Assembly: GCA_043745805.1 (NCBI GenBank)
Contig: JAYTSD010000037.1
Span: 1 to 64,000 of the forward strand
Reading direction: 5' to 3'
DNA from: Fibrobacteria bacterium
GTDB lineage: Bacteria; Fibrobacterota; Fibrobacteria; UBA11236
DNA: 64,000 bases
Shown here: piece after piece, positions 14,055-33,873 of the stretch
Position numbering within the stretch: the first letter of the stretch is position 1
Layout of the letters: each line of letters opens with the position of its first letter
Notes under the pieces: generated by a model
Told to the model about the DNA's origin: nothing
The model's input: only the letters and a program-made list of their open reading frames with translations
The model's database searches: none
Position numbers and translations under genes: made by a program

Positions 14055-14459
14055 ATGAAAAAGGCAAAACGTTTTGGAATCGGTCTCTTTTTAATTTGTT
14101 CCAGTCTATTCGCTCAGGATCCTGTCAAAACAGATGGCGACAAATATAAAGTGATCTTGGAAAATGAACGCGTAAGAGTGCTCGAGTACAAGGACAAACC
14201 GGGAGACAAAACTACCAAACACCATCATCCTGATTTTGTTTTATATGCTCTCGACTCCTTTAGCCGTAAATTAACAATGGGTAACGGAAAACAAATAATT
14301 AAGGATCTTAAACAAGGCGACGTTATATGGATGAAGGACCAGATACATATTGGTGAAAATATTGGAAAAACAGAAACGCACGCATTGATCATAGAATTGA
14401 AGGAATCACTACATGCACAGCCCGATGATAGTTCAAAAATTAACCAAATCAAAAAATAA
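14055..14459 (+). CDS. Secreted cupin-fold protein
   Basis: Signal peptide ending SLFA-QD; ENERVRVLE..KPGDKT..HHHPD cupin-like motif; second motif WMKDQIHIGENIG. Confidence 0.75.
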   Translation: MKKAKRFGIGLFLICSSLFAQDPVKTDGDKYKVILENERVRVLEYKDKPGDKTTKHHHPDFVLYALDSFSRKLTMGNGKQIIKDLKQGDVIWMKDQIHIGENIGKTETHALIIELKESLHAQPDDSSKINQIKK

Positions 14460-14584
14460 GAGTCCAAAAAAGATGATATAAAAGAGTTGCATAATAAGGC
14501 CAATTAACCATACTGAGCGCGGGCGTGCTCGCAACTTAAAACCACTTTATCCGGACTAACTTTAAAAAAGGAATAAATACAAAA

Positions 14585-14623
14585 ATGAAAAGAGTGCACA
14601 TAGCTATTGGTGTTGCAAACATT
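14585..14623 (+). pseudogene. Possible N-terminal remnant of a VOC/glyoxalase-family gene
   Basis: AAGGA RBS followed by MKRVHIAIGVANI, a VOC beta1-like start; resemblance ends after about 13 codons. Confidence 0.35.
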
Positions 14624-14647
14624 ATACGACATTTTGCCTTTTTAGTA

Positions 14648-14678
14648 TTGCCTCCCAAGCTTTGCAGTTGGGAGGCAA
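14648..14678. repeat. Inverted repeat/hairpin (11-bp stem)
   Basis: TTGCCTCCCAA-N9-TTGGGAGGCAA. Confidence 0.6.
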
Positions 14679-14959
14679 ATTTAAATGATTATGTTTTAGC
14701 GGGAAGAACCATCAATAACTCATGATGAGTCTATTGTAGATAAGTTGCTCCGATATTATTCGAGTACAAAAAGGTATGACGACGATCAGAGAGCTAGCGT
14801 TTCCCTTATTATGAAAACGAATACTATATCAGGAGAGGCATTATAGGCATTGGTAGAATTCAAATAATTGATAGAAACTTAAGAATTACTGAATGAGCTT
14901 CCTTCCCTGAAGAATTTAATCCAATTAAAATCAATGGGGATACCCTGCTATCGAAAATC

Positions 14960-15283
14960 TTGTCGAGCCTAATCTTCAATATTTCTGCAGGAGATAGTCC
15001 AGGTGGGATATCTTGGCAGGAAGCAATTCAAATTCTGGATTGGAAAAATGTTTATGGGTATCAGGTTCATGAGATCCATGCAGGTTACAGGCATCTAGAT
15101 TACGCTAGTGGAAATACTAAATCCATTAGTAAACAAATTACTAAATATTACTCTATAACTAGCAATCATGACGACTCTTGGTTTCTTTTTGTATTTCCAG
15201 ACTATCGTAAAAGTACGGAAGACTTGGGCAAAATAGTTTCTGGAATGAAAATCGAAAAAATTCGAGGAAAAGTTCAAAAATAG
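14960..15283 (+). pseudogene. C-terminal fragment of a degraded hypothetical gene
   Basis: 107-codon open frame with TTG start and no RBS; the upstream sequence looks coding-like but is interrupted by stops. Confidence 0.3.
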
Positions 15284-15373
15284 AAACTTACCCGCTCACA
15301 ATGCACAATCGTTGGCGGTCGTTGTAAGGTTACCAAGAACCAATTAACAAACTGTAAAATTAAAAACAATCAT

Positions 15374-15835
15374 ATGAACAAAACAAAAAAATCCGAATTC
15401 AAATTAATTGGACTTAAACTCCACAACAAGACAACTAATGAAGGCGGACAATCAAGTATTGACCGCGGAAGCCTTTGGCAAAAATTTGAGAAAGAGAATT
15501 TTACAAAAAGGATACCGGACAAGTTAAGCGAAGAAATTTACGCAGTCTATTTTTACTATGAAGGCGACCATACCAAACCATTTTCATATTTTATTGGCTG
15601 CCCAGTAAAAATGGATACGCCAGTACCACAAGGAATGGAAAGTTTACTTATACCGACCAAAAATTACTCTAAGGTGATTGCAAAAGGAAAGATGCCGGAC
15701 TGTGTTGCCAATTCTTGGAAGGACATTTGGAGTTGGAACATTGACAGAGCCTACAACTTTGACTTTGAGAAATATGATGAAAGAAGTAAAGATTGGTCCA
15801 ATGCAGAAGTGGAAATTTTTGTTTCGACTAACTGA
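15374..15835 (+). CDS. GyrI-like small-molecule-binding (AraC effector-binding) protein
   Basis: LIGL..KTTN, SLWQKF, IYAVY..YEGD, YFIGC, WKDIW, RAYNFDFEKYD, VEIFVS. Confidence 0.85.
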   Translation: MNKTKKSEFKLIGLKLHNKTTNEGGQSSIDRGSLWQKFEKENFTKRIPDKLSEEIYAVYFYYEGDHTKPFSYFIGCPVKMDTPVPQGMESLLIPTKNYSKVIAKGKMPDCVANSWKDIWSWNIDRAYNFDFEKYDERSKDWSNAEVEIFVSTN

Positions 15836-15952
15836 CGAAATGATTATTTGTTAATCATCATATCAGCCGCATGGAAAACCTCTTCAATATCGGCGAGGTT
15901 CCCATAGATTTTACTGTCTCCGGCCCTTTCGTGAAAATTGCATAATTTAAAT

Positions 15953-15980
15953 CCGATCCGAAACTCCACTTACTCCGTAT
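15953..15980 (+). promoter_or_regulatory. Putative ECF sigma promoter, copy 1
   Basis: CCGATCC-N15-CCGTAT, 9 bp before ATG 15990; same motif and spacing at 19085 and 20948. Confidence 0.7.
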
Positions 15981-15989
15981 ATAGGATTA

Positions 15990-16622
15990 ATGAGACTAAA
16001 TGCAGCGATTTTTAATTTTTTCGCATTAATTGAGCTTTCGGGTAGTTTGTGCCAAGCGGAAACCATCGGGCAGTACCTAAGCCAAAACGGCCGCTATGCC
16101 CAAGCCTTCGATTTGAATTTGGGTTTTCTTGCCAGCGTCCCTCACGGCGTCAATCAAGCCGAAAGTCGCTTGGGCGCGCGCTTTGGGCTTGGCTATGAGT
16201 TTAACCCTTTACCTTTACCCCATTTACTCCTTCCTGTAAATGTGGCTCTTTTGTACTCCACACGAGCTGTGCAGATTGGAAATATCCGCTGGACTTTTTC
16301 AGAAGCGAAATTCCAAATCTTGGTCCATCATTCCGTGATACCTGGTTTCACATGGGCTGAACCGGCCTTATTCATGTCCCCGTTTTATACCACCGACTTG
16401 ATCTTGTCGGGGGCTGGGGGTAACTTCCCCGCTATCAAGAGTCTTCAGGATCTTTTCTCTCTAGATGCCGGAGCCGCCTTACTTGTAAATATTTCTATTT
16501 TACAGGCTCGCTTTTATTATGCCCAAAACTTATTGAAACAAGTGGAATCGACTCCACTCACCGTTTCCACTTTTGGTGCGGATTTGCTATTGCCGATTAG
16601 TCGCAAGAGAAAAGTGCCGTGA
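15990..16622 (+). CDS. Putative outer-membrane beta-barrel protein
   Basis: Signal-peptide-like N-terminus (CQA-E) and alternating hydrophobic strands (FDLNLGF, RFGLGYEF, LDAGAAL, LQARFYY); stop overlaps the next start. Confidence 0.55.
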   Translation: MRLNAAIFNFFALIELSGSLCQAETIGQYLSQNGRYAQAFDLNLGFLASVPHGVNQAESRLGARFGLGYEFNPLPLPHLLLPVNVALLYSTRAVQIGNIRWTFSEAKFQILVHHSVIPGFTWAEPALFMSPFYTTDLILSGAGGNFPAIKSLQDLFSLDAGAALLVNISILQARFYYAQNLLKQVESTPLTVSTFGADLLLPISRKRKVP

Positions 16623-17752
16623 ACAAACTTTATTTTTTAAGGAATATTTTTCCGATCTGGGCCCAATTAGTATCGGTCCGTATAGTGTTAGCCGCCATTC
16701 TCATAACCGCCTGCAGCCAATTGCCGACGCCGCCAGCCAATACTTTTGTTTTAAAGGGCCTAGTGCAAGATCCCTTGACCCGTATTTATACAGACTCTAC
16801 TGGCAAAGAAAAATTCGCCGATATCCCCGAGCCCTTCCGGGGATTCTATGCGGCATGCAGCGCTTGTCATTCGAATCTCGCGCCCAATACCGATGCCATA
16901 TTGCGGGCCAAGGCAAAGATGAATCTTAATACCTGGGCAGAGATAGTTGCATTCGGGCCGGATAGGCTTTTAACCGCAGCAAGCGGGCGCGCCATGCCAC
17001 CCGCACCAGAAAAAACGGTTCCCGATTCTCAGCTCGTAGCCGTGTTGGGTTTCCTTTCCTCTTGGTCTTCGGGCGGGGTTGCATTACAGGGTACGGATTT
17101 CAAGCAAGGGAAATTTTTGGTGGGACGTTTTTGCGCAGATTGCCATACCGCTGCGGGGAAAAACTCCGATCAAGCGCGCGCTTGGAATATCCTTCCATTA
17201 GATACTTATGCGGAGTGGATTAAATACCCTAGGCTCCTCTCTGGTCGCTTAGCCGAAAATCATCCTGGGGGTAATCCAATGCCGCCACCTAAATTCTCAC
17301 TGCAACCCACTGCAGCCGAGCGGAATATCCTGCTCGACTGGATTGCACGTAATTCTCCGAATAACCCCGATGGTATCGGACAAGGTACCGTAATAAATAT
17401 GTTACCTGACAGTATTGTTTCGGAGGGAGCTTTACTTAACGTGGCTTATGCACCTGCGCGACGCATAGTAAATCGTTATTGCGCCGATTGTCATACAAGC
17501 GGCGGCAAAAATAAAGATAAGAAGGATGCTTGGGGGAATGCCGATGTGAAGCTAGATGCTTATGCAGGATGGTTGAAGGCACAAAACACTTTAAAAGTAC
17601 GCCTTAATCCAGCCTTAGCTATTTCCCAGCGCCCATTCCCATTGGATTCTATGCCCAAGGGGAGTTTCTCGCGCCAACCGACTCAGGCCGAACGAGATAC
17701 CTTGCTCACATGGCTAATGCGCGGCTCCCCCAATACTTCGAACGGAGAATGA
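16619..17752 (+). CDS. Tri-heme cytochrome c lipoprotein (three tandem monoheme domains)
   Basis: Lipobox ILITA-C; CSACH, CADCH, CADCH, each followed by an MP(P/K) motif (AMPP, PMPP, SMPK) and a C-terminal Trp-containing helix. Confidence 0.85.
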   Translation: MNKLYFLRNIFPIWAQLVSVRIVLAAILITACSQLPTPPANTFVLKGLVQDPLTRIYTDSTGKEKFADIPEPFRGFYAACSACHSNLAPNTDAILRAKAKMNLNTWAEIVAFGPDRLLTAASGRAMPPAPEKTVPDSQLVAVLGFLSSWSSGGVALQGTDFKQGKFLVGRFCADCHTAAGKNSDQARAWNILPLDTYAEWIKYPRLLSGRLAENHPGGNPMPPPKFSLQPTAAERNILLDWIARNSPNNPDGIGQGTVINMLPDSIVSEGALLNVAYAPARRIVNRYCADCHTSGGKNKDKKDAWGNADVKLDAYAGWLKAQNTLKVRLNPALAISQRPFPLDSMPKGSFSRQPTQAERDTLLTWLMRGSPNTSNGE

Positions 17753-17755
17753 ATC

Positions 17756-18610
17756 ATGATCCGGCAAACACTTAGCTTGGTTCTATTATCAATTGCATTT
17801 GCATGGTCTTATTATCCTGGTAGTCCCGATCGCAATTTATCGGTTTTACAAACGGCCGAAATCACTCCGAACAAATATTTATACATGCGATTCAATCATC
17901 GCTTCGAAGATGCGATAGCACCTGAAGGGGAGAATAACCCGTTCTATGGTCTGCTAGGCATGGACGGGCCGGCAAATATTTATGTCGACTTGGCAGCGGG
18001 TATAGCAAACCTTTGGGAGGTAACACTTGCTCGCGAACGTCAATATAAAACCTATGCACTTGAAGCCAAGTTGCAGATGTGGAATCAACGTATCGATCAT
18101 CGTCCATTGTCAATTGCACTGACCTTGAATTCGGAAATCCGCACTGAACATCAGATCGAAGATGACAAAAAAATTTCGCTCGGGGGCTCGCTAATTTTAA
18201 CACGCAGTTTTTTCAGCGATCGAATGGAGCTGCTCTTCAATGGCCTCGGACAAACCAATACTAATGTTGCCGATCGCGGAATGGCATCCGATCACAGTGT
18301 GGCGGTGGGCCTCGGAATGATTTTGCGGCATGAGAGGATTTCATTTTGGGCAGAGGGATTTTTCCCCGTTGCGATCGGCGATTATGGTTATGTGAATACT
18401 TATTCCGGACTTTACCCAAAAGGGATTCCATTACAAGGATATGGTTTCACCTATCGCATTTACAACCATGCTTTCGCGGTGACGATCACTAATTATTCTG
18501 ATTTACTTGCTGCGAATTTTATTTCCGGCGCGCATGCACCTGGTGCGACGCGCATGAATGAATGGCGGCTGGGCTTTAACCTGACTCGCACTTTCAATGT
18601 GGGTCACTAA
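17756..18610 (+). CDS. DUF5777-like outer-membrane beta-barrel protein
   Basis: Signal peptide; LQTAE..., RFNHRF, FYGLLGMDGPANI, HAFAVTITN, C-terminal WRLGFNLTRTF beta-signal-like strand. Confidence 0.7.
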   Translation: MIRQTLSLVLLSIAFAWSYYPGSPDRNLSVLQTAEITPNKYLYMRFNHRFEDAIAPEGENNPFYGLLGMDGPANIYVDLAAGIANLWEVTLARERQYKTYALEAKLQMWNQRIDHRPLSIALTLNSEIRTEHQIEDDKKISLGGSLILTRSFFSDRMELLFNGLGQTNTNVADRGMASDHSVAVGLGMILRHERISFWAEGFFPVAIGDYGYVNTYSGLYPKGIPLQGYGFTYRIYNHAFAVTITNYSDLLAANFISGAHAPGATRMNEWRLGFNLTRTFNVGH

Positions 18611-18621
18611 GAAAGGGTATT

Positions 18622-19050
18622 ATGGAAAGACGTAATTTCTTGAAAACAGCTTGCTGGGCGGGCGTCGCGGGCTTAGCGGGTTGCGCGAAAACATATCGTT
18701 ATACGACCTCGAACTTACCAGGCGGCGAAGGCAAGGACGGATTTCTCGCTAAGGTGGATGAGATTCAGGAAGCAACATCCAATCTCTTTTATACCAAGAC
18801 GGGACCGGTATTATTGGTGAAATGGAAAGGCGAAATTAAAGGTTATGAATCGGTTTGCCCGCATACCATGTGCGAACTCAATGACGGCGAAAGAGTCCAA
18901 CCCATGAAAAACGGGGAAGTCCGCTGCTTCGTACATGATTCTTTTTTCAAACCCGCAGATGGCGGATATATTTCCGGGCCGGCGAATCCGACGGGAAAAC
19001 TTCCTGCATTCAAAATTCGGATTGAGGATGGAAAGGTTTATCGCGCATGA
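18622..19050 (+). CDS. Tat-exported Rieske [2Fe-2S] lipoprotein
   Basis: ERRNFLK twin-arginine motif, lipobox LAG-C, Rieske boxes CPHTMC and CFVH, GPA..L loop. Confidence 0.88.
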   Translation: MERRNFLKTACWAGVAGLAGCAKTYRYTTSNLPGGEGKDGFLAKVDEIQEATSNLFYTKTGPVLLVKWKGEIKGYESVCPHTMCELNDGERVQPMKNGEVRCFVHDSFFKPADGGYISGPANPTGKLPAFKIRIEDGKVYRA

Positions 19051-19084
19051 GGCCTTCACTTTCGATGAAAAAAAATATCTCCCT

Positions 19085-19112
19085 CCAATCCGATTCCTTA
19101 TGACCTCCGTAT
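19085..19112 (+). promoter_or_regulatory. Putative ECF sigma promoter, copy 2
   Basis: CCAATCC-N15-CCGTAT in the intergenic region before the His-repeat lipoprotein. Confidence 0.72.
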
Positions 19113-19183
19113 ATGGAACAGATGAGTCGAAAATTCATTCCTTACCAAAAGTACCTAACCCATTTCTCAAGGAGAAATTTGAT

Positions 19184-20800
19184 ATGATGCAATCTAAACA
19201 GATTTACAGAAAAGCAAAGCACTGGGCCATACCTGGATTGATTGGCATGAGCCTTTCATTTATGGCCTGTAACGAAGATAAGAGTACAGGCCCTGCAAAG
19301 GCCACGCCCACCATAACAATCTCGAGCCCTACCAAAGGTGCGGTGATTTCCTTAACAGGCTTCCAAGTGAAGGTAAAGACCACCGATTTCACCTATGGCA
19401 AAATAGGCGATGCGAATATGGATGGATCGGGCCATATGCACGTTTACCTAGATAAGCCCGCTAACTCCGGCGCAGCCTATACCGCGGTGATCACGGACGG
19501 TGACACCGCGACCGTTGCAGGGCCATTGTCGGCAGGAATTCATTATGTCATCGTGACGCTACAGAAAAACGATCATAGCCCATACAATATCCAAGATTCA
19601 ATGAGTTTTTTAGCGAGTGCAACCATTCCTACAACCACCTCTTCGGTTGCATTTCTATCTCCTACGGAAGGCTCTATGAATGGGACTTCGGTCACTATCA
19701 AATTGTCTCCGATAAATTTCAAAGTAGTCGCACCAGGTGCAGCAAAATCTGGAGAAGGCCATTTTCATTACTTCCTAGACGGCGGAACCTATGTGCCTCT
19801 CGCCGATACAGTATTGACATTAGACAAGCTTTCGGTAGGCGAACATAGCTTGCGGGTTACCTTACAGAACAGCGATCATAGCGACTTGAACGTTGAAAAA
19901 ACTCTCAAGTTCAAGGTTGTCGCAGGCATGCCCAATTTCACTTTCGCTTATCCATCAGAAGGCGCGACGGTAGGACCGGTCGTCAGTATCCAGCTTTCCA
20001 CCACCGATTTCAAATTGGCGGCTCCGGGCGATTTGCATCACGATGAAGGCCACTTCCATTATTTCTTGGATGGTGGACCTTATAATGCCCTCGTGGACAG
20101 CACCATCTACCTCACAGATCTAAAGGAAGGCGATCATAATATCCGTGTTACCCTGCAGGATAATAAACACCAAGACATTGCACTTGAACGCACCTTACAT
20201 TTCAAGGTGGGAAGTTCTAACCCGTCCTTCACCTTTGCCTCACCTGCTACAGGAGCCATGCTAGGCTCTTCCGTCACCATCCACATCTCGCCGATGAATT
20301 TCAAGGTCGCTGGCCCTGGTCCAAACCTTGTCACCGGTGAAGGCCACTTTCATTATTTCGTAGATGGCGGCACCTACAACGCACTTGCAGATACCATCTT
20401 CACCTTGAATAACCTTTCCGTTGGCGAGCACACGGTACGCGTTGCTATGCAAGATGACAAACATGGGGATCTCCATGTAGAACGCTCCTTGAAATTCATC
20501 GTCTCCGCCACGGCACCTTCCTTCACGATCAGCTCGCCAAAAGAGGGAGATACAGTCTCTTCTCCAGTCGTTTTGAAAATGGCAGGAAAAAATTTCACCG
20601 TTGTCGCACCAGGGACTGTGAAGCCCAATGAAGGTCATTACCATTACTTTATTGATAAAGGGACTTACAATGCCTTAGCCGATACCATGGTCAGTATCCC
20701 TGCCTTAACTCCCGGTCTTCATACCCTTAGAGTGACCATGCAAAAAGGGGATCATTCGGATTATGGATTAGAGCAATCGGTGTCTTTCACTGTGAAATAG
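19184..20800 (+). CDS. Lipoprotein with five His-rich beta-sandwich repeats (DUF4399/DUF6130-like)
   Basis: AAGGAG RBS before ATG 19184 (538 aa; the ORF-track start overlaps the Rieske gene). Signal peptide ends SFMA-C. Five ~95-aa repeats with GH[FMY]H[YV][FY][LVI]D ... G.H...V.[LM]Q..[DK]H. Confidence 0.85.
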   Translation: MMQSKQIYRKAKHWAIPGLIGMSLSFMACNEDKSTGPAKATPTITISSPTKGAVISLTGFQVKVKTTDFTYGKIGDANMDGSGHMHVYLDKPANSGAAYTAVITDGDTATVAGPLSAGIHYVIVTLQKNDHSPYNIQDSMSFLASATIPTTTSSVAFLSPTEGSMNGTSVTIKLSPINFKVVAPGAAKSGEGHFHYFLDGGTYVPLADTVLTLDKLSVGEHSLRVTLQNSDHSDLNVEKTLKFKVVAGMPNFTFAYPSEGATVGPVVSIQLSTTDFKLAAPGDLHHDEGHFHYFLDGGPYNALVDSTIYLTDLKEGDHNIRVTLQDNKHQDIALERTLHFKVGSSNPSFTFASPATGAMLGSSVTIHISPMNFKVAGPGPNLVTGEGHFHYFVDGGTYNALADTIFTLNNLSVGEHTVRVAMQDDKHGDLHVERSLKFIVSATAPSFTISSPKEGDTVSSPVVLKMAGKNFTVVAPGTVKPNEGHYHYFIDKGTYNALADTMVSIPALTPGLHTLRVTMQKGDHSDYGLEQSVSFTVK

Positions 20801-20841
20801 ACTAGTGGGAGTTTTGCTTCCCCGTTCCATTTTATTTCCAT

Positions 20842-20878
20842 GCCCCCTCTCCATTCGGAGTGGGGGTTTTGTACTTTT
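20842..20878 (+). terminator. Probable terminator after the His-repeat lipoprotein
   Basis: GCCCCCtCTCC-attc-GGAGtGGGGGT stem followed by TTTGTACTTTT. Confidence 0.6.
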
Positions 20879-20947
20879 AGGTGAATATCATTAACAGGTA
20901 ACATTTTCCAGCCAGGCCAGATAAAACTTCGAAGATTATGAAAATCA

Positions 20948-20975
20948 CCAATCCGTCTTCCCAAATGCAGCGTAT
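20948..20975 (+). promoter_or_regulatory. Putative ECF sigma promoter, copy 3 (autoregulatory)
   Basis: CCAATCC-N15-GCGTAT directly upstream of the sigma gene. Confidence 0.68.
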
Positions 20976-20987
20976 CTATTTACAGAC

Positions 20988-21668
20988 ATGTTTAAACTGG
21001 AATACGCGGCCAATAGGTCTCAATGCGCAATGCACCCGAAGGCTAGGAATTTTTTCCGGTCCTCGGCGCATTATTCAAAATGGATTCTGGAATCGAGCCC
21101 TCCCTTGACCTTGCCCGTAGAAATTCCTTTGCTCATGGAACAGATTGCCAATCGCGATTCTAAAGCTTTGAAGGAATTGTACCAACGCTTTTCCAAGGTC
21201 ATTTACAATATCATTTTCTCCATTCTGAAGAAGAAGGAAGACTCGGAAGAAATCCTAGAAGAAGTATTTTTCCAGGTATGGGAAAAAGCACCTCAATATG
21301 ATATTACAAAAGGCTCGGTTTATACTTGGATGCTGACCCTGGCCCGCAATCGTGCGATTGATCGTATTCGCTCCAAAGGTTTCAAAGGCGAGAAATCCAT
21401 GGACATGGCTGCCGATGTGGAAGCAATGTGTAACAATGATCACACTAGTCAATTAGATCAAGTGGTCCTCTCGGAAAGGGCCGTGCATGTCAAGACGGCC
21501 ATGAACAGGCTTTCTTCGGATCAACGCCAAGTATTACAGACCGCATATTTCGAGGGGCAATCTCAAACAGAGATCGCAACATCTTTGGGCATTCCCCTCG
21601 GAACTGTTAAATCTAGGGTTCGCGATGGCATGAAAGCGATGCAATTCTTTTTGAAGGATGTGCTGTGA
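20988..21668 (+). CDS. ECF RNA polymerase sigma factor (SigK-like)
   Basis: Region 2 EEILEEVFFQVW..WMLTLARNRAIDRIR; region 4 YFEGQSQTEIA..LGIPLGTVKSRVR. True start may be downstream. Confidence 0.92.
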   Translation: MFKLEYAANRSQCAMHPKARNFFRSSAHYSKWILESSPPLTLPVEIPLLMEQIANRDSKALKELYQRFSKVIYNIIFSILKKKEDSEEILEEVFFQVWEKAPQYDITKGSVYTWMLTLARNRAIDRIRSKGFKGEKSMDMAADVEAMCNNDHTSQLDQVVLSERAVHVKTAMNRLSSDQRQVLQTAYFEGQSQTEIATSLGIPLGTVKSRVRDGMKAMQFFLKDVL

Positions 21669-22468
21669 TGACCATGGATAAAAAAGAATTCCTAAACTTG
21701 GCAGAAGTTTTTGCCCTCGGTTTGATCGATGGCCAAGATTGCGTCCGTTTCAGACAAGCCCTAGCATCAGCCGATGAAGAAATGCTGGAGGCCTACAATG
21801 CAGCCGTACAGTCCACTGTAAACCTTTCCTTGGCCGCGCCCGAAATGCCACTCTCGTCTTCCGTTCTCGATAAACTGATGACTCGCATCGAACCGGTTCA
21901 AGTTCCCGCTCCCAAGGTGCGCATCGCTTGGATCATGCCTTTTCGCATTGCTGCTTTTACGACCGCATGCTTGGCTCTCGTGACGGTAGGGTTAGTGAGC
22001 TATGTCAATTATCTACGCGCCGGCAAGGAAAGCCTTCAAAGTCAGGTCGCCGTGAGTCACGTTAAAATCCAAATGTTACAAGACTCACTATCGCAGAAAG
22101 AAGCCATGTTGGACGTAATCCGTTCCAATCAAATGCAGGTCGTGGTCATGAATGGCCAAGAAGTGAATCCCACCGGTTACGGGAAAATCATTTGGGATCC
22201 AGTCGGTAAAAAAGCCATTTTACATGTTTCGCATTTGCCCAAGCAATCGTCGGATAAAGATTATCAGCTTTGGGTGATTCGAGATAAGGTACCAGTCGAT
22301 GCAGGAGTATTTCAAGTGGCTGACAATTCCAAGAATGGCCAGCTCTATAAAATCGATCAATTAGCGGAAGCGGATAAAAGCCATATTAATGCCTTCGCTA
22401 TTACTCTCGAACCTAAGGGTGGCGTGAAGCAACCATCGGGCAAGATGTATCTTTTAGGTAGTATTTAA
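21665..22468 (+). CDS. Anti-sigma factor, RskA-like
   Basis: Overlaps the sigma stop; N-terminal anti-sigma segment (FALGLI), single TM, coiled coil, RskA-like C-terminus (DKDYQLW, PVDAGVF, AFAITLEPKGG...PSG). Confidence 0.88.
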   Translation: MMTMDKKEFLNLAEVFALGLIDGQDCVRFRQALASADEEMLEAYNAAVQSTVNLSLAAPEMPLSSSVLDKLMTRIEPVQVPAPKVRIAWIMPFRIAAFTTACLALVTVGLVSYVNYLRAGKESLQSQVAVSHVKIQMLQDSLSQKEAMLDVIRSNQMQVVVMNGQEVNPTGYGKIIWDPVGKKAILHVSHLPKQSSDKDYQLWVIRDKVPVDAGVFQVADNSKNGQLYKIDQLAEADKSHINAFAITLEPKGGVKQPSGKMYLLGSI

Positions 22469-23096: not shown

Positions 23097-25184
23097 TTAT
23101 CCAGTTGAAAAGTCGATACCTATTGGTGGCAAAGAGCCGTCATTCTTTTTACTGAAAAAATCTTGAGCGCTAAAAAATTCTTCATCTGTAGCTTTATCAC
23201 AATGTGTATAATTTCCATCGCTACGCATTAAGCGGTTTTGCTTATTATCCGCCCAATAAATCGAAAGTATGTTTTGAATTTGTGATAAAATGATTGGATT
23301 TTTTAGCGAAACCAAAACTTCAACTCTTTTGCGCATATTGCGATCCATCCAATCGGCCGAACCCATATAGACTACGGGATTATTATTATTTGCAAAGAAA
23401 AAAATACGACTATGTTCTAAAAATCGTCCGATTAAACTTTTTACTTGAATATTTTCACTCAAGCCTTTTATTCCAGGACGTAACGCACAAATTCCACGTA
23501 CAATTAATTTAATTTGTACGCCAGCTTGTGAAGCACTATATAAGGCCTCAATGATTTCGGCATCGAATAAGGCGTTCATTTTAGCAACAATTAATGCAGG
23601 CCGACCATTTTGGGCATGTTCTTTTTCACGCCGAATAAATGAAAGGGTTTCAGATAAAAGATTTACCGGACCAACGAGTAAAGAATTAAAATCAGGACTT
23701 TTACTTTGCGAAGTTAAGAAATTAAAAACTTCACTTACGCCATTAGTAATTTCACTATTCGCCGTGAGTAAGCTTAAATCGGTATAATTTTTTGCGGTAT
23801 CGGGATTGTAATTACCGGTGCCAATGTGAGCATATTGGCTAAAGCCTTCTTCTTCTTTACGCACTACTAAGGCCAATTTGGAATGGGTTTTCAAGCCTAC
23901 CAAACCATATACCACCGTTCCACCATATTCTTCCAATTCACGCGCCCAACCAATATTGGATTTTTCATCAAAGCGTGCTTGTAATTCTACAACCACGACT
24001 ACTTCTTTTCCGAGCTCTGCAGCTTCGAGCAAAGCATACATAATCTGCGACTCTTGATTGGTACGATAAAGGGTTTGCTTTATCGCTAGAACTTTTGGAT
24101 CGCGAGCCGCGCTTTGAATGAACTGTACCACGGGATCGAAAGAATCATAAGGATGGTGAAGAAAAATATCTTGTGTTTGGATGCTTTTAAAAAAAGCGTC
24201 CCAATCACTAAATTTTATAGAGTGATTAGCTATTAAAGGTGAATATTTTAATAAATGATGTGGCAATAAATTATACAGACTAACTACTCGATTTAGGTTA
24301 ACAGGATTGGGTACGCGAAAAACTAAATTAGGTTCAATATCAAAGTACTTGATAAGTTCATCAACACTTTTTTTCGGCGCATTCTTATCGATTTCTAAGC
24401 GTACCACATTACCCTTACGGCGATTGTGTACTACGGCCTCCACGACATCAATCAAGCTGGCGCCTTCCTCTTCTTCCACATAAAGATTGCTATTGCGAGT
24501 GGCGCGAAAGGCGGAACAGTTTTTGATGACATAGCCACGAAAAAGTTCTTGAATGTAGTGTTGTATTACATCATAAATAAAGATAAAGCTATGATCTTTA
24601 TCTTTAGAGGGTAAACTTAGAAGTCGCGGTAAACTGCGTGGAATGGTGATCACGCCTAAGGCATCGTTTTTCTTGTCTTCTTTTAGAATGACTAAAAGAC
24701 AAAGACTTTTGTTTAGCACCCAAGGAAAAGGATGTGTGGGATCAAGCTTTATTGGTGTGAGTAGATGATAAACTTCTTTTTGAAAATAACGTTTTAAATA
24801 ACGAGCATCTTCCTCATTCAATTCCGCAAAGGATTTGATATGAATATTATTTTGTTGCAAGGCAGGTAACAAATATTCATTCCAGCATTTGTATTGCTGG
24901 CGAACTAATTTTTGGCATTGTCGTAATAAAGCCTCAAGTTTTTCTTCTGCATTAATTTCAGCAATACCATCGGTGAGTATTCCCGATTCAATTTTTTGCA
25001 AAAGTCCTGCAACGCGCACTTCAAAAAATTCATCTAAGTTATTTGCGACGATAGCTAAATATTTAATGCGCTCCAGAAGAGGGGTTGTGGAATTAAAAGC
25101 TTCGTCCAAAACTCTTTGATTAAAACTTAACCATGAAAATTCGCGATCAAGATAGCGATCTTTAAGTCCAGCCTGGCCTTGCAT
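23097..25184 (-). CDS. ppk1: Polyphosphate kinase 1
   Basis: REFSWLSFNQRVL, NLDEFFEVRVAGL, HPFP, HHPYDSF, ELQARFDE, KTHSK, GRFLEHSR, GSADWMDRN. Confidence 0.98.
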   Translation of the reverse strand: MQGQAGLKDRYLDREFSWLSFNQRVLDEAFNSTTPLLERIKYLAIVANNLDEFFEVRVAGLLQKIESGILTDGIAEINAEEKLEALLRQCQKLVRQQYKCWNEYLLPALQQNNIHIKSFAELNEEDARYLKRYFQKEVYHLLTPIKLDPTHPFPWVLNKSLCLLVILKEDKKNDALGVITIPRSLPRLLSLPSKDKDHSFIFIYDVIQHYIQELFRGYVIKNCSAFRATRNSNLYVEEEEGASLIDVVEAVVHNRRKGNVVRLEIDKNAPKKSVDELIKYFDIEPNLVFRVPNPVNLNRVVSLYNLLPHHLLKYSPLIANHSIKFSDWDAFFKSIQTQDIFLHHPYDSFDPVVQFIQSAARDPKVLAIKQTLYRTNQESQIMYALLEAAELGKEVVVVVELQARFDEKSNIGWARELEEYGGTVVYGLVGLKTHSKLALVVRKEEEGFSQYAHIGTGNYNPDTAKNYTDLSLLTANSEITNGVSEVFNFLTSQSKSPDFNSLLVGPVNLLSETLSFIRREKEHAQNGRPALIVAKMNALFDAEIIEALYSASQAGVQIKLIVRGICALRPGIKGLSENIQVKSLIGRFLEHSRIFFFANNNNPVVYMGSADWMDRNMRKRVEVLVSLKNPIILSQIQNILSIYWADNKQNRLMRSDGNYTHCDKATDEEFFSAQDFFSKKNDGSLPPIGIDFSTG

Positions 25185-31725: not shown

Positions 31726-33873
31726 TTAATTGATCATCACGATGGCCCCTTTAACGGTGGCCATAATATCGGCTTCCAAATTAGCCAATTTACCCGTTAC
31801 CTTGGTTTGCACGCCACCCTTTATATCCATATTCACGGTGGCTTCAATTTTGGTATTGAGGCCTTTCATGCTTGCTTCGGCAGTGCCTTCTAAGGTGAGA
31901 TTCTTTTTGGCTTTAAGACTTACATCTAAACCTTCGCCAATAATTTCTTTAGCGGCTTTAATATTGATGGCTCCAGATTTCGCTTCCATATTAATTTCTT
32001 TAGCCGAAATATCCAGTTTGCCTTTGGCGCTAAATTGCAAATCCCCTTCAGTAGTAATGGATATTTTGCTTCCACCGACATCAATTTGCAGAGAATGCTT
32101 GCCTTTACCATCTTGTAGAGCGATTAATTTTTTATCATCGTCCAGTTTTAATATGTGGCCATCTTTGGTTTGCACAGTCAGCGATTTAGAAGGATCATCC
32201 AAAGTGACTTGATGCCCATATTTGGTTTTCAAAACCATTTTGGAATTTTTATTATCGAGTAAAATGGTTTGTCCACTCTCTTTACTGATGATAAGAATTT
32301 GCTGTTCCTTATCATTAAAAACCAATTCATGGCCATCGGTGGTTTTCAAATGAATTTCTTTTTTGTCCGGATCATCATTCATCGACAATAAATGTTTACC
32401 CGTAGTGGTCACATCAAAAACCGTTTTACCTTCTTTATCATCTAAGCGCATTTGGTGACCCGAAGCGGTGCGAATCACATTTTCATTACGATTGCGACTA
32501 TTCACCGGGGAGACTGTATTAGGATTTGGCACAGCGCCCACAGCGATTGGTCTATCGGGATCCCCATCGACAAAGGACAAAATAATTTCTGTTCCATTTA
32601 ACAAAGGAAAATGCATTCCAAAATTAGAACCGGCATAAGGTTGAATTAAACGAATGGCCTTGGTGGCTTGACCTTTATTTTTATCTCCCAAATCAAAAGG
32701 CATTTTGGCGCGATAACGACCTTGATCATCTAGATATGCATATTTGCCTTCTTCGCCATCGACCTTTGCGGCAATCACACCATGGATAATTGGCTTTGGC
32801 GTTTTTCGTTCGGGACGAAACTGGGTATCGACGGGAATACAAGCAAAAGAATTACTGTATAAGCGATTAGGTGTTTTGTTGGCATGGGCCCCTTCGCGTT
32901 GATCACCATGATGATGCACTTCTAGCACAAGGTAATTTCCTTCAAAGGCGGGAACATGTGTGTCTTCCATCTTAAAGCGATAGCCAGAGCGCATAGGCCG
33001 ACAAACACTTTGACCTTCAAGAACAATTTTTTTGCAGGCAAAAAGTTCCGCATAAAGTTTTGCCAAACGATTTGCTTCATCTACGCTTTTAGTGTGCTGA
33101 CCAAATACATAATGTTCGCCTTGACCTTTTTGATTGGCATGGCCGATGACATTAGTGTCGGGGTAGCGATAATTATAATCTTTGACCATAGCATTACCCG
33201 TTACCATTTGTTGTTTGCGATGAACGGTAAAAATATAATCGTGTTCATCTTTGGTATTCATGTCCGTTTCGGGATAGAAACGAATAGTATCTTGGTGCGG
33301 AGTAGGTTTAATAGAAAGGGCTTGATTGGCTAAAACCAAAACACTCGCATCGCCTTCATGATTGAAAAAATAAAAAACACCTTCATCTTCCAATAGACGA
33401 TGTATAAATTGCAAATCACTTTCATTGTATTGCACCGTGTATTCGCGTTTGGGAAAATTATCCTTGGCATCGAATTTAAAATCGGCATCCGAAAAAGCAT
33501 TGTCTTTAAGGACTTCGGATACAATTTCTTTCACATCCATATTTTGGAAAACGCGGCTTTTGCTTCCATGAGCTAAAAGTTTAAATTTGGGCTCAAAAGT
33601 AATTTCATATTCCATGGCGCCATCGCCAATAGGCACTTGTTGATAATGCGTAACGATGCCTAAATGATGGGCATTTCCTTCAGATAAAAAAACCTTGAGC
33701 TTGACCGGCTTGCCCATAATTTTTTCATAATCGATATCGCCTTCTAAGCATATTGCGGTGATATGAAAGGAATAGCATTCCGAAATTTTTTCATGACCTG
33801 TCCAATCCAAAACCTTAAAAGTATCTGCAGGCAAATCGCCTACTTTTAAAGTGTAATGTGCTATTGCAGCCAT
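31726..33873 (-). CDS. vgrG: VgrG (T6SS/contractile-system spike protein), orphan
   Basis: GHEKISECYSF, SRVFQN, REYTVQYNESDLQFIHRLLEDEGVFYFF, KDYNY, LDDQGRY, GMHFPL..GTEI..SF..GDPDRP; gp5-like C-terminal repeats ending KGAIVMIN. Confidence 0.93.
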   Translation of the reverse strand: MAAIAHYTLKVGDLPADTFKVLDWTGHEKISECYSFHITAICLEGDIDYEKIMGKPVKLKVFLSEGNAHHLGIVTHYQQVPIGDGAMEYEITFEPKFKLLAHGSKSRVFQNMDVKEIVSEVLKDNAFSDADFKFDAKDNFPKREYTVQYNESDLQFIHRLLEDEGVFYFFNHEGDASVLVLANQALSIKPTPHQDTIRFYPETDMNTKDEHDYIFTVHRKQQMVTGNAMVKDYNYRYPDTNVIGHANQKGQGEHYVFGQHTKSVDEANRLAKLYAELFACKKIVLEGQSVCRPMRSGYRFKMEDTHVPAFEGNYLVLEVHHHGDQREGAHANKTPNRLYSNSFACIPVDTQFRPERKTPKPIIHGVIAAKVDGEEGKYAYLDDQGRYRAKMPFDLGDKNKGQATKAIRLIQPYAGSNFGMHFPLLNGTEIILSFVDGDPDRPIAVGAVPNPNTVSPVNSRNRNENVIRTASGHQMRLDDKEGKTVFDVTTTGKHLLSMNDDPDKKEIHLKTTDGHELVFNDKEQQILIISKESGQTILLDNKNSKMVLKTKYGHQVTLDDPSKSLTVQTKDGHILKLDDDKKLIALQDGKGKHSLQIDVGGSKISITTEGDLQFSAKGKLDISAKEINMEAKSGAINIKAAKEIIGEGLDVSLKAKKNLTLEGTAEASMKGLNTKIEATVNMDIKGGVQTKVTGKLANLEADIMATVKGAIVMIN

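Follow-up and report, generated by a model that had tools for sequence, protein, structure and literature searches.

A histidine-triad lipoprotein with five candidate metal sites beside a cytochrome-Rieske operon in Fibrobacteria

We analyzed a stretch of 64,000 nucleotides from a Fibrobacteria bacterium (assembly GCA_043745805.1, contig JAYTSD010000037.1, positions 1 to 64,000 of the forward strand; hereafter, the window), focusing on a gene at 19184..20800 that encodes a 538-aa lipoprotein (P0001) built of five tandem domains of the DUF4399/DUF6130 type. The four histidines conserved in every domain appear, from their pattern of loss among relatives, to form two independent units: a triad, consisting of the two histidines of an HxH motif and the histidine of a (D/K)H motif, and a separate Asp-His pair, which includes the histidine of a GxH motif. 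We therefore consider one three-histidine site per domain more likely than a four-histidine site, on the evidence of co-conservation in 525 domains and of a coupling analysis. We propose tentatively, and with somewhat less than even confidence, that the protein carries five metal centers, probably copper, which would work together with an envelope redox module.

The gene, which is supported by its open reading frame (ORF), translation, Pfam matches and an AlphaFold2 model, lies like all other features of this locus described below on the forward strand (+). It is contained in a longer ORF (18935..20800), and its likely true start is the internal ATG at 19184, preceded by a Shine-Dalgarno sequence, AGGAG, at 19170-19174, nine bases 5' of this codon. 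A terminator-like hairpin with a T-run follows 3' of the stop codon (20848-20866; the feature as a whole is delimited as 20848..20876), so that the ribosome-binding site and the terminator which the initial annotation had assigned to this gene could both be located. The signal peptide (19184..19270), with the sequence …GMSLSFMAC and the lipobox LSFMAC, ends at C29 and is followed by N-E-D-K. C29 is the sole cysteine of the 538-aa protein, in agreement with the earlier statement that none occurs past the lipobox, and all 12 of the aligned homologs keep it without exception; signal peptide, lipobox and invariant cysteine together mark the product as a bacterial lipoprotein.

Also borne out was the claim of five tandem His-rich repeats with 20 conserved histidines. 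The GH.H motif occurs five times, at residues 83, 192, 289, 387 and 484, with a spacing of about 97 residues, and in every repeat it is followed in register by G-x-H and then by (D/K)H. Domain 1 (19301..19627, residues 40-148) carries GHMH, GIH and DH and is the most divergent; it is also the type that stands alone beside a cytochrome c in related genomes. The next three domains share GHFH and differ in the remaining motifs: GEH and DH in domain 2 (19628..19924), GDH and KH in domain 3 (19925..20215), GEH and KH in domain 4 (20216..20509). Domain 5 (20510..20797) carries GHYH, GLH and DH. The resulting sets of conserved histidines (84/86/120/131, 193/195/221/232, 290/292/318/329, 388/390/416/427 and 485/487/513/524) account for 20 of the 26 histidines of the protein. 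The repeats are old: pairwise identity among the five ranges from 27% to 61%, and at the DNA level the best repeat family within the gene is 66-73% identical. Only 15 positions are invariant across all five repeats, including the four histidines and the aspartate of a YxD motif. The pattern of histidines is thus selected, rather than a by-product of recent duplication.

To describe which histidines go together, we used 525 domain instances from 157 proteins, each covering at least 75 of the 96 columns of a profile built from alignment A2, and we number positions as in domain 5 (H43, H45, H71, H82 and D49). The histidines are present in 92% (H43), 84% (H45), 87% (H71) and 82% (H82) of these domains, and all four occur together in 377 of them. 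H45 and H82 are almost always kept or lost jointly (both present in 426 domains, both absent in 81, one alone in 18; odds ratio 531), and H43 is lost together with H45 and with H82 (odds ratios 126 and 166). The loss of H71 is independent of this triad (odds ratios 1.4-1.8), being coupled instead to D49 of the Y-x-D motif (odds ratio 21); overall, couplings between the triad and the D49/H71 pair have odds ratios of 1.0-1.8. These odds ratios, like the locus tallies given below, overstate independence, because the domain instances and the loci are related. A mean-field coupling analysis of 296 near-gapless domains placed H45-H82, D49-H71 and H43-H82 at ranks 1-3 of the 3916 long-range pairs (separation of at least 8). 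The method does report contacts here, since the next-ranked pairs correspond to ordinary sandwich-core and strand-pairing contacts. All five domains of the window protein have the full triad and the full Asp-His pair. The initial annotation was thus right in recognizing four conserved histidines per repeat, but as a single set of four they did not hold together, splitting into triad and Asp-His pair.

The strand registers given by these contacts, combined with the fibronectin type III (FnIII) topology, would bring D49 next to H71, at the C-terminal end of the domain. The triad would lie at the N-terminal end, at the junction of the B-C loop, the start of strand C and the F-G turn. Carbonic anhydrase and the copper site of Cu,Zn superoxide dismutase use such a ligand pattern, an HxH motif on one strand with a third histidine nearby, and HxH plus H is among the classical ligand sets for copper or zinc.

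The repeats are divergent DUF4399/DUF6130 domains with an FnIII/immunoglobulin (Ig)-like fold. The whole protein scores 51.2 bits against DUF4399 (PF14347), well above the cut-off of 28, and the motif of this family, G-H-x-H ... H on a beta-sandwich of about 90 aa, is found in all five repeats. The per-repeat Pfam check proposed at the outset gave a mixed answer, in that the whole protein belongs to DUF4399 while each repeat taken alone reaches 13-27 bits and stays below the cut-off. Against DUF6130 (PF19625), domain 5 scores 13.9 bits (cut-off 23.7) and the whole protein has no match; close homologs, however, carry precomputed PF19625 matches, and the orthologous protein in a 51% relative of the same phylum (L018) scores 52.3 bits, so the two families overlap. 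Homologs are annotated as DUF4399 and as DUF6130, one of them under the title 'DUF6130 family protein [Fibrobacterota bacterium]', and the neighbors found by the language model of the ESM Atlas are DUF6130 and DUF4399 clusters. The placement of the repeats in these uncharacterized families, suggested from the sequence at first, is supported by Pfam, homolog annotation and the ESM Atlas. NCBIfam has no family for the five-domain protein; weak Pfam matches were seen to BiPBP_C, CE2_N and Big_7.

An exhaustive search with one repeat retrieved 518 clusters at 50% identity (E ≤ 0.001) from bacteria and archaea, and the best 150 of them are mostly tandem arrays; a word-index search of short proteins with one repeat gave no match. 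On re-scanning with the profile, 146 of the 157 relatives have 2-10 domains, so that tandem repetition is the norm in this subfamily and not an oddity of the window gene. Some relatives, from archaea, are long surface proteins in which as many as 10 repeats are combined with a membrane anchor at the C-terminus.

AlphaFold2 modeled the whole protein with a mean confidence (predicted local distance difference test, pLDDT) of 84.3, and domain 5 alone, with eight strands, at 97.2. A PDB sequence search with the whole protein returned no match at E ≤ 1, and a search with a 13-sequence domain profile gave chance-level matches only (E ≥ 0.46). Structure comparison by Foldseek against the PDB and by VIA-align against 48,161 representatives retrieved only generic FnIII, Ig and PKD domains, among which no metalloprotein stood out; the best match is the dimerization domain of a sulfite dehydrogenase (8s5s; Z 9.9, root-mean-square deviation 2.6 Å over 87 residues). 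An HxH motif is present in the repeats; a fold like that of Cu,Zn superoxide dismutase found no support, with no superoxide dismutase chain among the best 50 matches listed by Foldseek or VIA-align and no match in the PDB sequence search. The portions of the literature covered here yielded no functional study of DUF4399 or DUF6130, mentions of them being incidental, and the covered part of one paper that mentions the family says that functional characterization 'remains scarce'. Literature searches found no paper on DUF5777, and none on DUF4399/DUF6130 proteins co-regulated with a cytochrome/Rieske/DUF5777 operon.

The genes surrounding the five-domain gene encode a redox module and a regulator. 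The operon upstream begins with a 210-aa exported protein of no known family (15990..16622), which has no Pfam match even at E 0.05 and has a 71% identical copy at the same place in an 81% relative (L002); it could represent a second small outer-membrane component. It is followed by a triheme cytochrome c lipoprotein (16619..17752; lipobox LITAC, heme motifs CSACH, CADCH and CADCH), a DUF5777 outer-membrane beta-barrel protein (17756..18610; PF19089, 2.8e-22), and a 142-aa Rieske [2Fe-2S] lipoprotein exported by the twin-arginine translocation (Tat) system (18622..19050; RRNFLK signal, LAGC lipobox, CPH...CFVH). Downstream of the five-domain gene, Pfam identifies an extracytoplasmic function (ECF) sigma factor (20988..21668) and an RskA-type anti-sigma factor (21665..22468).

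An ECF-type promoter-like motif, ATCC-N16-CGTATAT, precedes the first gene of the operon (15956-15982) and recurs about 70 bases 5' of the start codon of the five-domain gene (19088-19114); the promoter copy claimed in the initial annotation is thus real as a motif. A third, looser copy stands before the sigma factor gene (20951-20975). The two matches in the window compare with 0.19 expected, and two of 100 shuffled sequences also gave two. In the 3.95-Mb genome the strict form occurs three times, the third inside an unrelated gene, and its reversed control not at all; a looser 10-base form is non-specific (8 matches versus 6 for the reversed control). All three sites are kept in the 81% relative, and the gene of the 51% relative has a comparable TCCGATCC-N16-CGTAAC in front of it. 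From these motifs we infer that the upstream operon, the five-domain gene and the sigma/anti-sigma pair form one small ECF regulon of three transcription units. The block of six kb that holds them (window positions 16000-22000) has 46-51% G+C, against 34-38% in the flanks (14200-16000 and 23200-25000), which suggests that operon, five-domain gene and sigma/anti-sigma genes were acquired as one island. The block sits between the ribosomal/rpoBC region and ppk/ppx, and the wider window (rpoBC, ribosomal proteins, ppk/ppx and others) holds no metal-transport genes that would help to assign the metal.

Matches to the domain were found in 9 of 201 genomes of the phylum, and the five-domain form in three only: that of the window (G000), G199 and G194. 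The cytochrome, barrel and Rieske genes adjoin the five-domain gene at loci L002 and L007, and also at L018, there in convergent orientation. Loci L008 and L015 of G194 give the same percentages as L018, and no result rests on these two alone. Six genomes of a sister genus encode a one-domain lipoprotein most similar to domain 1, and in all six a monoheme cytochrome c lipoprotein lies directly downstream, 47-57% identical to heme domain 3 of the window cytochrome. Within 8 kb on each side of this pair, in the three genomes checked, there are no DUF5777 or Rieske genes. Since the pair is kept in six of six genomes and neither barrel nor Rieske gene is near it in these three, the minimal conserved unit is one His-triad domain plus one cytochrome c. 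The association with the cytochrome that had been suspected from the sequence is accordingly upheld on two grounds, the common promoter motif and this pairing. The genome of the window, with a completeness of 99.2%, has one heme-copper oxidase, on another contig; cytochrome bd was not found in it. It also encodes a one-domain paralog, a canonical DUF4399 lipoprotein of 146 aa (C44:53880-54143), and has up to two further one-domain matches, at C47:14653-15054 and C50:34142-34513, each spanning a TAG stop.

Outside the phylum, we characterized 20 loci by Pfam, 18 of them over the 4.5 kb flanking the match on each side, and two (L004 and L025) over the central gene and the next downstream ORF only; L005, L034 and L035 are outside this count. 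A cupredoxin is fused to the domain or encoded within 4.5 kb at 10 of the 20 loci (L004, L020, L023, L024, L025, L027, L028, L029, L031 and L032), and a pyrroloquinoline quinone (PQQ)-like beta-propeller is fused or adjacent, likewise at 10 of 20. In two archaeal proteins (L027 3130-3894 and L029 7971-8768) a signal peptide with lipobox is followed by a DUF4399-type domain with the full motif and by a cupredoxin with H..C..H..M ligands; the L027 fusion gene stands between genes for a PQQ-like propeller and for cytochrome bd subunit I, this being the only one of the 20 loci with a cytochrome bd subunit nearby. Six loci of Chloroflexota (L003, L004, L021, L023, L024 and L025) and three of Methanomicrobia (L020, L031 and L032) share a recurrent module, a PQQ-like propeller with C-terminal DUF4399 domains that is usually followed by a cupredoxin gene, and at L031 a GSDH-type propeller is itself fused to a cupredoxin. 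At one locus, in Dehalogenimonas (L022 7953-11561), a two-domain DUF4399 protein directly precedes and abuts a 940-aa COX1-FixO-cytochrome c fusion, a predicted single-polypeptide cbb3-like heme-copper oxidase. Another, in Anaerolineae (L028 1061-5337), combines a DUF4399 protein and a cupredoxin with an ECF sigma/RskA pair 24-28% identical to that of the window, the only such pair among the 20 loci; the same type of regulator thus accompanies the domain in a distant phylum.

The mechanism that we propose would operate as follows. The lipoprotein would be a rod of five FnIII/Ig-like DUF4399/DUF6130-type domains, in each of which the triad (H-x-H, where strand C begins, and the histidine in the N-D-H turn that links the last two strands) would form one mononuclear transition-metal site. 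The fourth conserved histidine would pair with the conserved aspartate at the other end of the domain, probably with a structural role. As a member of a small ECF-sigma regulon together with the triheme cytochrome c lipoprotein, the Tat-Rieske lipoprotein and the DUF5777 barrel, the protein would either exchange electrons with the cytochrome through its metal centers or hold metal ions that the module oxidizes, reduces or hands on. Copper is our best guess for the metal, because elsewhere the family is partnered with blue-copper proteins and an oxidase, and because HxH plus H belongs to the ligand sets typical of copper or zinc; the sole basis for preferring copper to zinc or nickel is the company that the domain keeps (cupredoxins, oxidases). 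Metal binding, the identity of the metal and direct contact with the cytochrome are thus all put forward by us as proposals from these patterns. As for location, the lipidated cysteine is followed here by N-E-D-K, and in the orthologs and one-domain forms mostly by a polar and then acidic residues; the cytochrome and Rieske lipoproteins have no such acidic residues after the cysteine. A polar residue followed by acidic ones constitutes the lipoprotein export signal of Bacteroidetes, in the covered portion of the published account (PMC5080379). By analogy this hints that the His-triad protein faces outward at the cell surface and its partners the periplasm, the signal being known from Bacteroidetes and the host here belonging to Fibrobacterota.

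A more far-reaching version of this proposal is speculative, and we regard it as doubtful in its entirety. DUF4399/DUF6130 would be an unrecognized, small mononuclear redox center, with copper held by three histidines in a type-2-like manner; its electron donors would be cupredoxins in archaea and Chloroflexota, and c-type cytochromes in Fibrobacterota. The window protein, exposed at the surface, would be the heme-free analog of a multiheme outer-membrane cytochrome, with five copper centers in a row ending a barrel-cytochrome-Rieske chain. Its role would be either to reduce or oxidize a small extracellular substrate as the terminal enzyme, or to conduct electrons by means of copper.

Several observations weigh against five metal centers working with the redox module. 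The convergence of the three triad histidines on one point is deduced only from co-variation and strand topology, and the domain copies and proteins behind the co-variation are phylogenetically related. Taken singly, the repeats score 13.2, 20.0, 19.5, 18.0 and 27.1 bits against DUF4399, all below its cut-off. The fold matches are generic Ig/FnIII domains, many of them mere spacers or adhesion modules, and known copper beta-sandwich proteins score weakly (CopC, 5icu, is at Foldseek rank 20 with a template modeling score of 0.51). No recognized copper protein was found in the window operon, and no Cupredoxin_1 match in the 99.2% complete genome. The gene and the cytochrome operon are convergent, not co-transcribed, in the 51% relative. 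Of the loci in other phyla, 7 of 20 have no redox neighbor, and the PQQ-like propellers of archaea and Dehalococcoidia may not be true quinoproteins.

Two alternatives dispense with electron transfer altogether. The repeats could form a structural or adhesive surface rod, that is, a spacer, an S-layer-like element, or a stalk binding polysaccharide or cell surfaces, in which the histidines stabilize the fold directly or through a structural ion. The best fold matches are indeed FnIII/Ig spacer modules of glycoside hydrolases and receptors, the weak Pfam matches to BiPBP_C, CE2_N and Big_7 agree with such a role, the long archaeal relatives with up to 10 repeats and a membrane anchor are surface proteins, and the C-terminal position that the domains take in beta-propeller proteins of Chloroflexota and archaea is a frequent one for spacers. 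Yet it is rare for spacers to keep an exposed HxH...H triad, its members lost in a coupled way, at 82-92% among hundreds of diverged copies, and a rod would leave the promoter motif common with the cytochrome operon, the pairing with cytochrome c and the enrichment of cupredoxin neighbors unexplained; on balance we judge this account unlikely. Alternatively, the five histidine sites could constitute a passive buffer or sponge that, under ECF stress control, binds Zn, Ni, Co or Cu at the envelope in order to store or detoxify it and exchanges no electrons with the cytochrome or Rieske protein. ECF sigma/anti-sigma pairs are a common layout for envelope metal-stress regulons, and such a pair appears to control this locus; the protein has five intact triads and neither cysteine nor Met-rich motifs, and tandem sites, 2-10 per protein in most relatives, would raise binding capacity. 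But the conserved partners are redox carriers instead of efflux pumps or metal transporters, and the cupredoxin fusions point to a working partnership over buffering. Moreover, capacity is not the conserved feature, because the minimal conserved unit is one domain with a cytochrome c. No result favors the sponge suggested in the initial annotation over a redox or hand-over role, and we see a sponge as quite unlikely.

The genomic association with copper proteins could also reflect a copper chaperone, whose domains capture extracytoplasmic copper and deliver it to a heme-copper oxidase or to cupredoxins, in the manner of PCuAC, Sco, CopC or YcnI. Cupredoxins at half of the 20 loci of other phyla, the fused heme-copper oxidase adjoining the domain in Dehalogenimonas, and the presence of one heme-copper oxidase in the genome of the window would all suit this role. 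It is nonetheless distinctly improbable in our estimation: neither the window operon nor any of the six minimal pairs includes a cuproprotein, the oxidase of this genome is on another contig, a chaperone-client fusion would be unusual, and the family lacks the known ligand sets (N-terminal His brace, Met-rich motif or CxxxC). Finally, the exposed histidines of tandem beta-sandwich domains, on a lipoprotein encoded next to heme proteins, recall the tandem NEAT domains or HmuY-type lipoproteins that pass on heme, and the domains might relay heme or another ligand along the chain. Neither NEAT nor HmuY appeared, by fold or by sequence, among the top matches listed, a 97-aa FnIII-like domain has no obvious pocket, and traffic in heme does not agree with the cupredoxin and propeller partners found in other phyla, so that we give this relay hardly any credence. 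Five metal centers, probably copper, that work with the redox module remain the reading we prefer, at the tentative level stated at the outset.

One further observation concerns the wider window. At 31726-33870 it encodes a 714-aa protein with a phage baseplate hub (GPD/VgrR-like) domain, adjoining genes for a peptidyl-arginine deiminase and a C-N hydrolase; the same deiminase/hydrolase pair adjoins the five-domain gene in the 51% relative.

The locus offers a testable first function for a widespread and unstudied domain, with three handles: a candidate ligand set, HxH plus H, for which the separate Asp-His pair is a built-in control; a minimal two-gene unit of one domain and one monoheme cytochrome, easy to express; and natural fusions to blue-copper domains. 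Should a copper redox or hand-over role be borne out, hundreds of families would gain an annotation, and the envelope redox modules around DUF5777 barrels, which are poorly understood, would gain a heme-free element. Should the domain bind nothing, a large body of 'His-rich' predictions could be dropped.

Compared with known systems, the window protein is a divergent member of the catalogued DUF4399 (PF14347)/DUF6130 (PF19625) families, that is, a variant within an unstudied domain family of beta-sandwich domains of the E-set type. It resembles these in passing the DUF4399 cut-off and in its GHxH...H motif, and differs by its divergent repeats, by their five copies on a lipid anchor, and by its apparent co-regulation with a cytochrome/Rieske/DUF5777 operon. 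Its features set it apart from three other classes of protein. It is not a cupredoxin or type-1 copper protein, having no cysteine after the lipobox and no cupredoxin Pfam match; nor a histidine-brace copper protein (CopC, YcnI, LPMO-like), since its mature N-terminus is the lipidated cysteine and its repeats are internal; nor a multiheme outer-membrane cytochrome of the MtrC type, with no CxxCH and one cysteine in total. The closest analogy for a copper role comes from YcnI (DUF1775) of Bacillus subtilis, a beta-sandwich protein that binds Cu(II) and was identified through genomic association with copper proteins, as described in the covered part of that report (PMC8424229). Like the present domain, YcnI was an uncharacterized beta-sandwich DUF anchored outside the cytoplasm, for which neighboring genes first suggested copper; the same part of the report assigns to it an N-terminal monohistidine brace (PMC8424229), whereas the window domains are internal, have no free N-terminal histidine and present HxH plus H as candidate ligands. 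PDB sequence and profile searches gave no sign of a sequence relation between the two proteins.

In layout, the locus is similar to porin-cytochrome outer-membrane electron conduits such as MtrCAB of Shewanella and the fused cytochrome-porin Cyc2, combining a periplasmic-type cytochrome lipoprotein, a small outer-membrane barrel and a lipoprotein with many candidate metal sites that could be redox-capable, under what appears to be common regulation. It departs from them in that this last lipoprotein has no CxxCH, the barrel is of the DUF5777 type and not MtrB or Cyc2, and a Rieske protein is included. In copper nitrite reductase, including its cupredoxin- or cytochrome-fused variants, a type-1 copper feeds a three-histidine type-2 copper, and the putative three-histidine site of our domain is similarly partnered with a cupredoxin, in the two archaeal fusions, or with a cytochrome c. 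The fold, though, is unrelated, a single FnIII-like domain whose site would not lie at a trimer interface and for which no catalytic Asp/His pair was identified. We accordingly read the likeness to porin-cytochrome conduits, and that to three-histidine copper sites served by cupredoxin or cytochrome donors, as resemblance rather than membership.

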